A DNA stretch of 64,000 nucleotides from Narcine bancroftii (lineage: Eukaryota): positions 126,108,001 to 126,172,000 of the forward strand of contig NC_091472.1 in the NCBI RefSeq assembly GCF_036971445.1, given 5' to 3'. Below are positions 28,563 through 42,734 of the stretch, piece by piece (within the stretch, counting starts at the first letter, position 1; the number at the start of each line of letters is the position of its first letter). The notes below the pieces were generated by a model. It worked only from the letters and a program-made list of their open reading frames with translations, was not told the origin of the DNA and did no database searches. A program made the translations under genes and the position numbers.

Positions 28563-31110
28563 TTTTTTCTTTTTCAGTATTTTTATTAATCATATAAGTA
28601 AACAATACATGAGGAGAATAGAATGTAGAATCGAATAGTAAAAACAGACCTCAATATATTACAACGTATAATACAACATGTAACATTATAACCAATTGAA
28701 TAATATTATCTCTTTCTCTTCAATTTGGAATATAACCTACCAAAATAAGCAAAAATAAATCAGCAAAAAAAAAAAGGCTGGGCAGCCTAAACTGAGATCA
28801 ATACAAACACTTTATCTGGTCCTTCCCAATAATTTTTTAAAAATCAGAAATCGTAAACAGTCTGGAAGGTAAAATTAAAATACAGATGAACTCTTACGAA
28901 AATAATTTATAAAAGGACACCAATTCTCTTCAAACTTAATGGAGGTATCAAAAGTACAACTTCTCATTTTTTTTTTCTAATCTTAAACATGACATGAGAA
29001 AACCATTGCATCAAAGATAAATTAGGATCTTTTCATTTAAATAAAATGGCTCTTCTGGCCAACAGTGCAATAAAGGCTACAACCCGATGAGCAGAAGTGG
29101 GAACTCAATCCATCTTTAGAACTTCTTTTCTTTGGCTTGGCTTCGCGGACGAAGATTTATGGAGGGGGTAAAAGTCCACGTCAGCTGCAGGCTCGATTGT
29201 GGCTGACAAGTCCGATGCGGGACAGGCAGACACGGTTGCAGGGGAAAATTGGTTGGTTGGGGTTGGGTGTTGGGTTTTTCCTCCTTTGTCTTTTGTCAGT
29301 GAGGTGGGCTCTGCGGTCTTCTTCAAAGGAGGTTGCTGCCCGCCGAACTGTGAGGCGCCAAGATATACGGTTTGAGGCGATATCAGCCCACTGGCGGTGG
29401 TCAATGTGGCAGACACCAAGAGATTTCTTTAGGCAGTCCTTGTACCTCTTCTTTGGTGCACCTCTGTCACGGTGGCCAGTGGAGAGCTTGCCATATAACA
29501 CGATCTTGGGAAGGCGATGGTCCTCCATTCTGGAGACGTGACCCACCCAGCGCAGCTGGATCTTCAGCAGCGTGGACTCGATGCTGTCGGCCTCTGCCAT
29601 CTCGAGTACTTCGATGTTAGGGATGAAGTCGCTCCAATTAATTTTGAGGATGGAGCGGAGACGAAGCTGGTGGAAGCGTTCTAGGAGCCGTAGGTGATGC
29701 CGGTAGAGGACCCATGATTCGGAGCCGAACAGGAGTATGGGTATGACAACGGCTCTGTATACGCTAATCTTTGTGAGGTTTTTCAGTAGGTTGTTTTTCC
29801 AGACTCTTTTGTGTAGTCTTCCAAAGGCGCTATTTGCCTTGGAGAGTCTGTTGCCTATCTCGTTGTCGATCCTTGCATCTGATGAAATGGTGCAGCTGAG
29901 ATAGGTAAACTGGTTGACCATTTTGAGTTTTGTGTGCCCGATGGAGATGTGGGGGGGCTGTTAGTCATGGTGGGGAGCTGGCTGATGGAGGACCTCCGTT
30001 TTCTTCAGGCTGACTTCCAGGCCAAACATTTTGGCAGTTTCCGCAAAACAGGACGTCAAGCGCTGAAGAGCAGCAGGTATGGATGGAATCCCCCCAGAGG
30101 TCTGGAAGGCTGGCGGCAAAACTCTGCATGTCAAACTGCATGAGTTTTTCAAGCTTTGTTGGGACCAAGGAAAACTGCCTCAGGACCTTCGTGATGCCAT
30201 CATCATCACCCTGTACAAAAACAAAGGCGAGAAATCAGACTGCTCAAACTACAGGGGAATCATGCTGCTCTCCATTGCAGGCAAAATATTCGCTAGGATT
30301 CTCCTAAATAGAATAATACCTAGTGTCGCCGAGAATATTCTCCCAGAATCACAGTGTGGCTTTCGCGCAAAGAGAGGAACTACTGACATGGTCTTTGCCC
30401 TCAGACAGCTCCAAGAAAAGTGCAGAGAACAAAACAAAGGACTCTACATCACCTTTGTTGACCTCACCAAAGCCTTCGACACCGTGAGCAGGAAAGGGCT
30501 TTGGCAAATACTAGAGCGCATCGGATGCCCCCCAAAGTTCCTCAACATGATTATCCAACTGCACGAAAACCAACAAGGTCGGGTCAGATACAGCAATGAG
30601 CTCTCTGAACCCTTCTCCATTAATAATGGCGTGAAGCAAGGCTGTATTCTCGCACCAACCCTCTTTTCAGTCTTCTTCAGCATGATGCTGAACCAAGCCA
30701 TGAAAGACCTCAACAATGAAGACGCTGTTTACATCCGGTTCTGCACGGATGGCAGTCTCTTCAATCTGAGGCCCCTGCAAGCTCACACCAAGACACAAGA
30801 GAAACTTGTCTGTGAACTACTACTATCTTTAGAACTATAATTCCAAAAATAGCAGTCAATGGATTAGGTTGCAATATAATGCCCAGTATAATTCACTAAG
30901 TTTTGAAAATATCAGAACAATACCTCTCCAATGCAGAGCAAGACCAAAACATGTGCATTAGTGTGGCCACTTGTGTTCTACATCTATCACACATAGGACT
31001 AACATTAGGAAAGATGTGGGCCAATTTATCTTTCAACATAAGAACCCAATGTACCTCTTTAAACTGAATCGATGCATGTCGAGGACATAATGAAGATGAC
31101 CAAGGAAGTT
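28563..31110 (-). mobile_element. L1-type LINE 3' part hosting the inverted RTE copy
   Basis: Minus strand: IQFKEVH...KDKLAHIFPNVSPMCDRC....ATLMHMFWSC (L1 C-terminal zinc finger); T-rich tail at the left end. Confidence 0.8.
29124..30824 (-). mobile_element. RTE-clade LINE copy 2 with 5' inversion and 12-bp TSD
   Basis: 29124-30071 is the RTE 3' part on the minus strand; 30072-30821 is the upstream RT part on the plus strand (253-aa ORF, NYRGI.LLS..GKIFARILL, QCGFR, DLTKAFD, GVKQGCIL). TSD atctttagaact at 29112-29123 and 30825-30836. Confidence 0.93.
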
Positions 31111-33460: not shown

Positions 33461-33801
33461 CAGGTATACAATCTTTTATCTGGACATCAAAAATCTGGAA
33501 AATTCCAAAAACTGGCATTTTTTTTCTGGTGCTGGGAGGGATAAACGGCAGTGTGACTCGGGTGGGCAAGGGGGGAGAGAGACAGTAGTGTGACTCGGGT
33601 GGGTGGGGGGAGGAGAGAGAGAGAGAGAGACGGCAGCGTGACTGGAAGGGGGTGGATACGGCAGCACAATTCGGGTGGATTTAAATCTGGGACAGCTGGC
33701 TCCTGTTATGAAATCTGGAAAAATCCGAAATTCAGAACACACTGTATACCCACCCCTCCCCCCCCCCCCAAAAGGGTTCCGGATAAAGGATTGTGTACCT
33801 G
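33461..33801 (-). mobile_element. Tc1/mariner MITE, copy 2 (opposite orientation to copy 1)
   Basis: TIRs caggtatacaatcttttatc / gataaaggattgtgtacctg flanked by TA; the interior is the reverse complement homolog of 18071-18391. Confidence 0.9.
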
Positions 33802-33837
33802 TATTAGTAAAGCTTTGTCTGTTAACTTGGGGGAGGG

Positions 33838-34054
33838 TTGAAGTGCCAGTTGATGAAGTAGACGGATGATGTGGTCAAACAATAATCATGGCTTTTATTA
33901 GCAGAAGCTCATGGTACAATAATGAAAGACAATAGGTGCATACACAGTTATACCCAAGGGGAGTGTCCTTAACAGTAGAGATAATGCACAGCCAATGTTA
34001 GTACAGCAAGGCTCACCAGAGGGGAGACAGGCAGCTTGGCAGACATTCACCACA
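33838..34054 (-). repeat. 3' LTR of Gypsy 1 (217 bp)
   Basis: Direct repeat of 37575-37793; about 10 substitutions and one 2-bp indel by eye. Confidence 0.95.
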
Positions 34055-37000
34055 GTCTTCCCCCTGGCAGAAGAAGGGTTAAAATCAAAAGGACAGCTGC
34101 TCGGAAAGACTGAAGCAAATGATACATGGATACCATGTTTGACATTGAGAATACTCAATTGAAACAGCCAAAATATGCCAGTATCTAGCAAGCAATCGAA
34201 ATATAATGAGATGTTTTATGAATATGTCAGCCTATCAGGTTGTTTACGAATTCTGGTGCTTCTTCTCAAAACAGGTGGCTCCTTTGCAACTTTGGGAACT
34301 GGTACAGTTCCTGGGTCTGCAGTGTGGGAAGGACTGACTTCTGGACCCGCTCCAGAATCGCCAGCGTGAGGCAGTGGAGCCTCAGCATGGCCATCTGAAA
34401 GCTTACTGGGGGTTACAGGCTGGGGCGGGTGAGCCCAATCTCTCAGGCTCACTCTTGAGTAGGAGTGTGAGGAAGGGGCAAACCAGGCAAAGCCAGATCT
34501 CTTAGGGATACAGTGTCAGTACTCTCGCCTGTGAATTTAACATGAGCATAGTTGGGTTTGGTATGCAGTAGCTGAACTGGTTGGACTAGGGGGTCTGTTT
34601 TGTGCACACGAGCATGGCTCTTCAGCAGCACGATTCCAGGCTCAGATAAACAGGCTGGCCAGTCCATCACAGTTCCTGATTTCCCAGGAAAGCCAAACGT
34701 ACGTACATGAGGTGTTTGATTTGTTGTACACAATAATGACCGAATAGAATCTACAGGCAGCTCCTGCCACCGGGTAACGGGGTAACCATGTGCTTTTAAA
34801 GCAAGATTAACTGTCTTCCAGACTGTAGCATTAGCCCTTTCGACCTGCCCATTGCCCTGCGGGTTGTTGCTCGTGGTATGGCTGGTGGCAATCCCCTTCC
34901 ATGGCAGGGCTCGCCACAGTACGGCGTTCATGAATACTGAGCCTCTATCGGTATGAATGTAATTGGGAAACCAAAAATGATGAAAATTCTGTCAAGTGAC
35001 TTAATGACAAACGCTGACAAGACGTCAGGGCAGGGTATCACAAAGGGAAACCTGGAATATTCGTCAATTGTAGTAAGGAAATATAAATTTTTGTTGTTGG
35101 AAGGTAACGGTCCTTTAAAATCTACGCTAATCCTCTCAAAAGGTTGGGTTGCCTTGATGAGAGTGGCCTCTGGAGCTTTGAAGTATTGCGGTTTGCATTC
35201 TGCGCAAACGGGACAGCTTCCAGTCAGTTTCCTGACTTCTTCCAGAGAGTAAGGAAGGTTGTTAGTCCTTATGTAGTGGAAGAATCTCGTGACTCCTGAG
35301 TGGCAGTCTGCTATGGATCTCTTTTAGCCCCTCCAGCTGAGCGCCAGCAGCAGATCGTGACAGTGCGTCAGAGGGATCATTTAACCTGCCCGGTCTGTAC
35401 TGGATCTCATAATTATAAGTTGAGAGTTCTATTCACCAGCGTGCCATCTTATCATTCTTGATTTTACTTTAGTGTTTAGTACTGAACATGTAGGCTACAG
35501 ATTTCTGATCAGTGACAAAAGTAAATTTTCTGCCGGCTAGAAAGCGTCTCCAATAGCGAACAGCTTCAATAATAGCCTGGGCTTCTTTTTCAATGGTAGG
35601 ATGTTTAAGTTCAGGTCCGCGTAACATGTGGGAGAAGAATCCCACAGGTCTGCCCTTTTAAGGGTTCCTGCCAAGGCACAATCTGAGGCGTTTCCACTTG
35701 GAATGGGACATTCTCGTCAATGGAGGAGAGTGCAGCTTTGGCAATATCCGCTTTAATTCTCTCGAAAGCCTTCAAGGCCATTGGAGAGAGAGGAAAATAT
35801 TTAGTGTCAAACAGAGGGGGTGCCTTTGTGGCATAGTCCGAACCCATTTACAGTAGTAGGGAAAGAATCCCATACACCGTTTAAGGGCTTTTGCTGAGTC
35901 TGGGGATGGTAACTTCTTAAGGGGGGCCATTCTCTCTGGGTCGAGGCGGATTTCGCCCTTGCGGACAATGTAGCCCAGAATGGGTAACTCTGTCACATTG
36001 ATCACACATTTGCCCTTTTTAAATGTAAGGTTGAGTTCTTTAGCTGTTGCTAAAAATTTCTGTTGTTGTCGTGCTCAGCCTGTGTTTTTCCACAGATAGG
36101 GTCATTATCCAGATAGGGAAACGTACCCTGAAACTCATACGTCCTAACAATCTTATCCATTTCCCTCTGAAACATGGACACACCATTAATGACCCCAAAA
36201 GGTACCCTTTTAAACTGGTATAACCCTCCATCAGCCTCAAAAGCCATATAGGGCCATTCTCTTTTCTTAATGGGGATTTGGTGATAAGCTGCTTTGAGGT
36301 CGATATTGCAATACAAAGTGTACTCCACTATCTGATTAATCATTTCATTGATGCGTGGCAGGGGTTAGAGATCCAGGTTAGTGTAACAGTTGATTCTCTG
36401 GCTGTTGTTAATAGCCATTCGTCTCTTTGTGTGATTTTTTTTTTTCACAACTACCACTTGGGCCCGCCATGGACTCTTACTAGGTTCAATTACTCCCTCT
36501 TTAAGCAGTCTCTAGATCTCTGCTTTGATAAACTCATGAGTGGCAATCAGCTGACACTCCAGGGGATAAATCACTGAAAAAGGAAGGAGCTTTGATCTTT
36601 AATGCGGACAGACTGCAGTAACTAGCGCCGGGGATGGTAAGTGTGGGTAGTGGCCCACTGAAATATAACACTACACTGTTCATCTGAGATTGAATATCTA
36701 ATCCCAGTAACACAGGGGCGCAGAGCTCTGGCATAATAAAGAACCACTCATCAGCAAGGCAATGTCCCTGCAAATTTAAAGTAACTTTAAACTTGTCCCA
36801 TGCAGTTTTTGTAAGTTCACTATAAGCCATCGATATCTTTCGGTTCGCTGGATATCTCTGCAAATTTAGACTCCCCGAGTCTATTAGACAATCAAGAGTC
36901 TCACCATTCACCTCCCCCTTCATAGTCGACCGTTTCAGTCCGTAGCATCCCCCAAGGTTTACAGTCAATTGAGCTATCACAGGGAATCTCACCTTGCCGT

Positions 37001-37574
37001 CACTTGAAGTCGAATAAGCCTGCCTGTCTGAAGATTCCCCCTTTTCACAGTTGTCTTCAAATCCTGCAGCTCCAGGACGCATTTTCTTGGTGCTTCTCTT
37101 CTTATCAGTGGGAGTACTTTTCGCCATACACCCTTTAGCGAAATGGCCGAGTTTCCCACAATAGCTGCAGGTAGCAAATCGAGCCAGGCACTTCTGTCTG
37201 GGGTGCCAACTCTTATCACAGAAGTAGCATTTTTCAGGTGTTTGCAGAGGCAGAATCACTTTCCCCGGGTTTCTGGCGTCTAGTCAGCAACTGGTGTCTA
37301 GCAAGCACCACATTCCGTGGCATTGCATAGTAATCAGTCAGACGTTCCTGGGCTATAGCCAGAGTAGTAGCTCCTTGCATTACGGAGAAAGGGACCTCAC
37401 CCAGCAGAGAGTTCAGGTGGCCCCAGTGTATCGCCTCATCAACCACATTGTTTCGAGCCAAGTAGTAATCGAAACAAGCAATCCAGTGGTTGAAAATTTC
37501 TCTGGCCCTCGGGGCAGACTGGTCAATTATCACCCGCTCTGGCCTGAATGCTGCATCCATTTCTGCTAATAAAA

Positions 37575-37793
37575 TTGAAGTGCCAGTTGATGAAGTCGAC
37601 CAAGACGATGTGGTCAAACAATTATCATGGCTTTTATTAGCAGAAACTCATGGTACAATAATGAAAGACAATAGATGCATATACAGTTATATCCAAGGGG
37701 AGTGTCCTTAACAGTAGAGATAATGCACAGCCAATGTTAGTAGAGCAAGGCTCGCCAGAGGGGAGACAGGCAGCTTGGCAGACATTCACCACA
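37575..37793 (-). repeat. 5' LTR of Gypsy 1 (219 bp)
   Basis: Minus strand TGTGGTG...CTTCAA; contains TATA-like gatataac and AATAAA. Confidence 0.95.
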
Positions 37794-38319
37794 AGGGGGT
37801 TAATTATGATAACAGCAACACTTAGCACAGCAGTTTGCACAATGCTCTTCCAGTGCCAGTGACCAGGGATCAAATTTAAATTTGATTAGTTATAGTAATA
37901 GCCTGATTCGACTGAATGTTACATATTTAAAGGCTGCAATACAGATTTTTTTCAAATGATTTTAAATTACACTGTCTTTCGTCTTTTAAACAGTGTATTT
38001 TTTTACATTTACAAGTTTCTCCCTACATGTAATCGTAGTTGGATACAAAATACATAATAATGAGAAATTAATATCAAATCCATTACATGATGGTTAGCAG
38101 GAGTGGCCACTTGTGTTCATGGAAGATCTGCCCTAGGCCTTGCTGGCTCTTCTGTGCCAAAAATGTATTTAGTTCCACTTTAGCAACTGAAAGTTCAAGA
38201 ACACTTTCTTTCCAATGGCTATTGGGCCCTTGTTGCACTAATCATAGACACCACAAAGGACTGTCTGAACTATTGTAATGTCACTTTTTTGCAGTGATAA
38301 CAGCATTGATCAATCTTTT

Positions 38320-40991: not shown

Positions 40992-41291
<300 letters not shown>

Positions 41292-42734
41292 TAAATTGCA
41301 GCACTTAGCATTTTGTAAGAGAGGAGAAAAACTTCTCTATTCATGTGGGACGTCAGATTGAGAACCCTCAGAAATACGTAATACTGTAGCGTATGCGCCA
41401 TGTGAGCGTGGGGAAGAATGATATGCAAACCAAAGCATTGGTAAACTAGACTGATTTATTGCTCTAGCCATCGCATTTATGTGGGCCCCATGTCATCGGC
41501 ATGCCAGCCTCAGGTTGGCCAGTGTTTTCACCAGAGTTCCCCATCTTCCCAGTGTGTGGAGATCACCTGTATCCGGTGTGACCCCCAGGTCCGCACTACA
41601 GGCTGGTACATGATAACACACACACATCACGGGGGAGGAGTGGATACAGTCCAGATATGCCAGTTTCAGCCAGTTGACAGTAAAAGTCTCCTTCTTACCA
41701 TAAATGTCAAGGACGAAGGTTCAACTATTGTCTCTAATGACCTTGTAGGGCCCCTCGTAGGGTCATTGTAAGGGCGGCCTGTATATCCCTCTCCACATGA
41801 ACACGTACTGATGCCTTTAGATCCTTTGGGACGCTATGCTTGGGCTGGCTATGCGGTGGGGGTTGCCATAGGACCAAGGACCCCAGTTTTGGGCGCAGGT
41901 TGTCAAGGGTCGCCATGGGGACTTCCGGGTATTTATCGGGGGCCAGGAACTCCCTGGGGATGATTAAAGGTGCGCTGAAGATCATCTCCGCTGCCTGCAC
42001 TGAAGGTCTCCTTTGACGCATTATGAATTCCCAATAGGACAAAAAGGCATTTGGGACCCTTGAGTCAAGCCATCAAGGCTGCCTTGAGGTGCCTGTGGAA
42101 ACGCTCCACCAACCATTAGCCTACGGGTGATATGACATGGTATGATGGAGCTGTGTCCCCAGAAAGTTAGCCAGTGCTGCCAAGAGCCTGTAGGTGAATT
42201 TTTCCCCCCTGTTTGAGGTAAGGTGCGCCGCCAGATTTCTGTGGTGATATCAGCCAGCAGGTTAAGAGGCATCTCACCCCATGGGAATCTGGTAACGGCT
42301 CCACTGAGTCAATGTGTACAAGGCCAAACGTGCGCCACACCGACTGAAAAGTCTGTGTGGGGGCTCTGGTGTGAACCTGCACTTTGGAGGACTGACATTT
42401 CGTGCAGGTCTTGGCACATTGGCTGACCTGTTTACGGAAGCCATGCCAGACAAACCTGTTGGCCACCATTTTGTGCCAGGTTGTGGATGGCCTTGAAAAC
42501 CTGGCGCCTCCATGCAGGCTGAACAATGGGGAAGGGGCAGAAACGCCACACAGCAGGGTCAAGTTACCTGGGCGATGGGGATATCCTCCACCCTGAGACC
42601 AGAGACTACTGTTCTATAAGCGAGGATCTTAGGGTCCTGCTGCTGCACCTTGGTGAAGGCCACATAATAGACCCCTTGGGACCTTCATCAATTTAATTGC
42701 AGGGCATGACAGAACATCGGCTACCACTTTGTTT

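Follow-up and report, generated by a model that had tools for sequence, protein, structure and literature searches.

A stretch of 64,000 nucleotides from the Narcine bancroftii genome (assembly GCF_036971445.1, contig NC_091472.1, positions 126,108,001 to 126,172,000), hereafter the window, contains a Gypsy-type long terminal repeat (LTR) retrotransposon of 3955 bp at 37793-33839 on the minus strand, whose predicted primer binding site is complementary to a segment of its own LTR; all element features given below lie on this strand. The element has the direct TG..CA LTRs, target-site duplication (TSD) and polypurine tract by which Ty3/Gypsy elements are recognized. The 5′ LTR (37576-37793, 218 bp) agrees with the 3′ LTR (33839-34054, 216 bp) at 206 of 216 aligned bases, and the polypurine tract upstream of the latter (34056-34065) recurs in family copies. 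Between the LTRs lies a decayed gag-protease-reverse transcriptase (RT)-RNase H-integrase region (34216-37560) with matches to zf-CCHC, RVT_1 and rve and no chromodomain match; it opens with an ATG at 37560-37558 and is disrupted by stops, frameshifts and deletions. Among solved structures its RT is closest to that of Ty3, and the domain order is protease-RT-RNase H-integrase.

The element is flanked by CCCCT on the left (37794-37798) and ACCCT on the right (33834-33838), taken as a TSD with one mismatch under a 5-bp rule derived from other copies. Of 20 other copies examined, 15 have two LTRs, and ten of these 15 have a 5-bp TSD after CTTCA; the base after CTTCA is G in five of the ten. Because the duplications start directly after CTTCA, the LTR ends in CA and not in CAA, as an earlier reading of this sequence (the original prediction) had it, an error of one base. 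A single unpaired A (37575) therefore stands as a spacer between the CA of the 5′ LTR and the predicted primer site.

The predicted primer site itself (37574-37560), which lacks TGG, is the exact reverse complement of an LTR segment at 37646-37632, the arm, with 57 nt intervening. The arm, the predicted self-primer segment, includes AATAAA (37638-37633) and is directly followed by GCC (37631-37629), where a second helix begins and just upstream of which a cut is predicted. The original prediction of a perfect 15-nt complement of the element's own poly(A)-signal segment across a 57-nt loop is borne out by these positions, as are a copy of the arm in the 3′ LTR (33907-33893, a 14/15 match to the 5′ arm with no downstream partner) and a TATA-like box about 45 nt from the arm (TATAAC, 37691-37686, a predicted promoter only, starting 45 nt upstream). 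As had been noted, the 15-mer's final A (37560) doubles as the first base of the start codon, in agreement with the N-termini of homologues. The related claim that the stem abuts the start codon holds for the window family and several others, but not across the clade described below, in which the distance from the stem start to the gag match is 13 to 44 nt. The stem scores 15.5, against a maximum of 11.5 over 30 dinucleotide shuffles, and the 123-nt region containing it folds with a z of -4.66, none of 200 shuffles being as good. The predicted unpaired probability of AAUAAA is 0.004 in the 5′ LTR context and 0.87 in the 3′ context.

A search of the same genome returned 2327 first-look candidates, which puts the clade's copy number here in the thousands; 40 were scored and 30 examined. 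Of the 30 copies, 22 (the window copy among them) retain every one of the 15 pairs, and the other eight carry scattered changes in one arm. The possibility that a normal TGG primer site had been lost from this copy finds no support, as none of the 30 family copies has one; because their selection relied on similarity to a junction-containing query, a rare subfamily with TGG is not excluded by this count. A second young family in the genome (L141-L146), with elements of about 4.9 kb, LTRs 99.6-100% identical and 5-bp TSDs, shows the same design with a C-G to T-A swap at position 12, and its hexamer has predicted unpaired probabilities of 0.008 in the 5′ context and 0.48 in the 3′ context. Four of its six loci parsed cleanly; of the other two, one is a tandem copy and the other a flanking repeat. 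Among its copies the primer site differs from about position 15 onward while the LTR arm is constant, and the bases beyond about position 14 are therefore seemingly not re-templated from the arm. L142 of this family resembles a tandem array, and the RT segment of L143 is near-identical to a database protein from a ray (P0012).

Relatives were collected with the RT frame of the natural copy L034 as query, giving 1011 homologues at E <= 1e-30. The majority of these are unnamed; those with names are all animal (cartilaginous fishes, cnidarians and a nematode), cartilaginous fishes being nearest. A profile of 28 homologues located 90 further loci, 80 in metagenomes, one viral and nine in metagenome-assembled genomes (MAGs), of which 31 with DNA upstream of gag were sorted with the window into 20 families. 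Loci with too little DNA before gag, an unclear gag start or outgroup status were left out (e.g., L072, L073, L098 and L133). The primer sites of the clade are read from these loci and from this genome, the named taxa being represented by their proteins. Three clade elements, L132, L133 and L134, occur in bacterial MAGs, two of them on contigs of about 4 kb with a terminal overlap, and are likely eukaryotic contamination or circular cDNA.

A blind scan for stems, in which LTR ends were not supplied, found a best stem exceeding all 30 shuffles in 15 of the 20 families, and in 15 of the 20 the best stem starts exactly one nucleotide after the CA of the LTR (CA+1), a register for which the scan did not ask. 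The L062 and L064/L065 families fit the CA+1 design through other family copies, L054 fits with 15 pairs once the correct gag start is applied, and L105 fits through its 3′ LTR arm. In the covariation table, drawn up for 17 families with one good copy each, the stem begins at CA+1 and the site starts with TTT in every family. Watson-Crick pairs are found in 16-17 of 17 families at positions 1-12 and in none at position 0, the unpaired spacer, where purine faces purine throughout. The 17 families have 17 different 13-mers, yet at positions 5-13 the two arms pair in 149 of 153 cells, against a mean of 86 and a maximum of 104 in 10,000 column shuffles. Between families, perfect runs are no longer than 10 nt in 272 pairings; within the family's own sequence they span 11-18 nt in 15 of 17. 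In the clade the CA+1 site can form an 11-20-bp duplex with an LTR segment that has ..TAAA at its end, the 5′ arm lying 35-87 nt from the site and folding locally. Directly after the arm, RCC (R, purine) is present in 15 of 17 families, and 15 of 17 have a second helix of at least 4 bp that starts at RCC, against a mean of 4.5 and a maximum of 11 in 1000 null replicates. The examined families of the clade contain no TGG primer site; three distant control loci with the integrase before the RT (L136, L137 and L139) carry TGG sites. The pairing is real, clade-wide and covarying, and complementarity is retained in related families, including the second family of this genome, as the original prediction required. 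The unasked register is cleaner evidence for it than the pair counts.

These observations suggest, with good confidence, that the clade's own RNA, and not a transfer RNA (tRNA), serves as the primer of reverse transcription, in the manner of the fission-yeast element Tf1. In the proposed mechanism the 5′ part of the transcript would fold onto the primer site, the element's RNase H would cut at TAAA^RCC, and RT would elongate the 3′ end so created, copying the spacer, U5 and the remainder of R; this remainder, from the hexamer to the poly(A) site, would then serve first-strand transfer to the 3′ end. With a primer ending at the last A of the arm, the spacer base would be the first to be copied into DNA, and the right end of the LTR would be set with a one-base extension. 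Such a start would explain the fixed CA+1 register, which masking of a poly(A) signal alone does not need. The reading predicts an exact cut site and would tie priming to the choice of poly(A) site. Self-priming would also explain why tRNA-based annotation misses primer sites in these elements. A fuller proposal, of a large and deep animal clade (known from cartilaginous fishes, cnidarians, a nematode and many marine metagenome contigs) with independent self-priming not yet described in print, an internal TAAA^RCC cut from a longer capped 5′ fragment and a duplex that silences the 5′ poly(A) signal, is offered as a tentative possibility; such a clade would no longer depend on the supply of tRNA and would escape being silenced by tRNA fragments.

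The same duplex could also prime with a primer drawn from the arm copy in the 3′ LTR or from a second genome in the particle. The 3′ LTR does hold the arm, the terminal A's of the arm face a site starting with TTT in all 17 families, and sequence alone cannot distinguish which arm copy pairs. However, using the 3′ end as the source of the primer would presumably consume sequence required for first-strand transfer, the nearby 5′ arm favors a local fold, and Tf1 uses its 5′ end (PMC7175516). Priming from the 3′ arm is thus considered unlikely.

A different reading would have the stem purely regulate RNA processing, by concealing the start codon or the poly(A) signal of the 5′ LTR, while some other primer is used. 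The hexamer is predicted to be paired in the 5′ and open in the 3′ context, ten of 17 arms end in a canonical AATAAA or ATTAAA, and the ATG lies beside the stem in several families. Masking, however, does not call for a constant register relative to the end of the LTR, and still the CA+1 start is universal among the tabulated families; seven arms lack a canonical hexamer, two of them having one downstream beyond the stem; and no alternative primer site is visible. A purely regulatory stem is therefore improbable. As a second role of a priming duplex, by contrast, masking is made plausible by the predicted difference between contexts: the duplex would hide the poly(A) signal of the 5′ LTR, and the copy in the 3′ LTR, having no partner, would remain open.

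Priming by a host tRNA half or fragment, with the LTR match incidental, would have a parallel in the half-tRNA priming reported for some Copia lineages (PMC6317226), and the site does share 8 nt with tRNA-Ser(GCT). No longer match occurs among the 30 host tRNA genes examined, which cover 11 anticodon types, and the 17 families have 17 different sites, each matching its own LTR, which a conserved tRNA would not track; this explanation is very improbable. A coincidental match, or an inverted duplication arising locally in this copy, could draw on the A+T-richness of both arms and the 170 short inverted pairs in 20 kb, but is refuted by the retention of the pairing in 22 of 30 copies and its covariation across families, and is scarcely credible.

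Several points weigh against the self-priming proposal or parts of it. The pair counts lean upward because the stems were picked as best stems and the families are related, and the 14-bp stem of L118 is shifted a few bases from CA+1. The hexamer count given above, with just ten of 17 arms ending in AATAAA or ATTAAA, weakens masking as a general role. The transcript start, the cut and the primer are known here only as sequence-based predictions. Promoter-like pairs would place the arm at +17 in the window, where an initiator-like TTCATT lies with its A at 37662, 29 nt downstream of TATAAC (a loose match that does not satisfy the strict YYANWYY), or at +37 in the second family, where TTAAAG has a strict initiator 32 nt downstream; these calls are weak, and across the 17 families no TATA stands at a fixed distance from the arm. 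An initiator within the arm, which would give an 11-nt primer as in Tf1, is a candidate in view of the G that 16 of 17 families have at position 10, but pairing continues to positions 12-13 in 15-16 of 17. Among otherwise variable positions, this G-C pair at arm position 10, followed mostly by A-T at position 11, could reflect a start site or an RT contact. Finally, because the RT tree described below includes no chromovirus, an independent origin of self-priming is drawn from domain content and branch length.

The element lies antisense within an intron of a WD40 gene on the plus strand, between exons at 31.8 kb and 41.0 kb; exons of this gene, recognized by a WD40 match, are located at approximately 12048, approximately 31813, 40992-41294 and approximately 52528, and the gene looks like coronin. 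A degenerate short repeat of three copies of about 37 nt (33534-33655) is found just beyond the element. Further out, two long interspersed nuclear element (LINE) fragments, which we take to be RTE-like, face each other at 30067-30840 (plus strand) and 29181-29960 (minus strand); one is an RT piece (RVT_1) and the other a C-terminal piece like those of L046, and together they are possibly a rearranged copy.

A quick RT tree with a midpoint root was built from 53 rows, L181, L184 and L192 having been dropped owing to a short RT match or none; in it the 29 clade rows form a single group with a Shimodaira-Hasegawa-like approximate likelihood ratio (SH-aLRT) support of 100 and a stem of 1.17 changes per column. 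The group separates from the K02A2.6-like (Mag-like), Gmr1-like and other controls; the references include no chromovirus, CsRN1 or Saci2 and none of the MolGy clades of molluscs and annelids. The Mag-like and Gmr1-like labels of the controls derive from database names, domain order and recall. Like the clade, the Mag-like, Gmr1-like, CsRN1 and Saci2 lineages of animals have no chromodomain, and the clade RT is approximately 30% identical to those of the Mag-like and Gmr1-like controls. Mag elements have two CCHC-type zinc knuckles, a further likeness to the clade, and a search of viral contigs returned a single Mag-like locus. CsRN1 elements have a TSD of 4 bp and the clade one of 5 bp. The CsRN1 motif TGTGGYG (PMC3601003) fits the clade's LTR start, TGTGGTG, and Saci2 is described with a 4-bp TSD, in contrast to the 5 bp found here in ten of 15 two-LTR copies and in the second family.

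The absence of a chromodomain noted in the original prediction was upheld: neither a chromodomain nor SH3_Tf2-1 was found in any of the four clade polyproteins that were searched for them, nor among the Pfam entries of the best 120 of the 1011 hits. By this criterion the clade is not part of the chromoviruses. A Chromo search of the same genome gave 16 matches, of which four were examined and none had an RT. A search for SH3_Tf2-1 gave 150 matches; 12 were examined and nine kept, eight of the nine falling inside one other Gypsy clade. At L177 (2690-3263) a clade integrase fragment lies about 3 kb upstream of a chromodomain-coding frame without RT, and the two are probably unrelated neighbours. 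From domain content and branch length, it is likely that self-priming in the clade arose independently of Tf1/sushi. Some animal Gypsy families are reportedly entered in Repbase as self-primed, and prior notice is quite possible. The literature searched, which lay outside Repbase, GyDB and most subscription papers, gave no account of self-priming in a chromodomain-less animal Gypsy clade, there being none in the passages of PMC6317226, PMC6934838, PMC3601003, PMC6238403, PMC2774666, PMC12440569, PMC2836005, PMC3532108, PMC10085805, PMC5341516, PMC7175516, PMC5006619 and PMC12471100; those of PMC6317226 mention no non-chromovirus Gypsy group of animals. The self-primer group given in the original prediction under the name Selgy is ruled out as a candidate, Selgy being a Selaginella-specific clade with a host-derived name (PMC6317226). 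Its members are short non-chromovirus Gypsy elements, as are those described here, whereas the named homologues of the present clade are animal.

The proposed mechanism itself has precedent. In the sources consulted, the sole demonstrated case of self-priming is fission-yeast Tf1, and the groups to which it is attributed are the chromoviruses and a single Copia lineage of plants, with Tf1/sushi, Tcn1 and TAR listed as self-priming (PMC6317226). In Tf1, the transcript's initial 11 bases anneal to the primer site, and RNase H cleaves behind base 11 (PMC7175516). The clade resembles Tf1/Tf2 and Tf1/sushi elements in that the primer site, just downstream of the 5′ LTR, is complementary to that element's LTR and not to a tRNA (PMC7175516, PMC10085805), in the additional helices that adjoin this duplex and in the common Ty3/Gypsy domain order. 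It differs in other respects: Tf1/sushi chromoviruses have a chromodomain, and the clade has neither this nor SH3_Tf2-1; the clade's arm, unlike that of Tf1, ends in ..TAAA and often in a poly(A) hexamer; the clade's second helix starts at RCC and is mostly a local hairpin, which may set it apart from the three-duplex 'pretzel' of Tf1; and the Tf1 primer is the 5′ end of the transcript, whereas the clade's arm may sit 17-37 nt inside it. For plant Tcn1 chromoviruses and TAR Copia elements, self-priming was predicted, as here, from complementarity between LTR and primer site (PMC6317226). Tcn1 has a chromodomain and TAR is a Copia lineage, both of plants, in contrast to a chromodomain-less Gypsy clade of animals, and together they indicate that self-priming is able to arise more than once (PMC6317226). 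An animal clade without a chromodomain and with the fixed geometry ..TAAA^RCC, loop, CA, purine, TTT.. would represent another, likely independent, origin.
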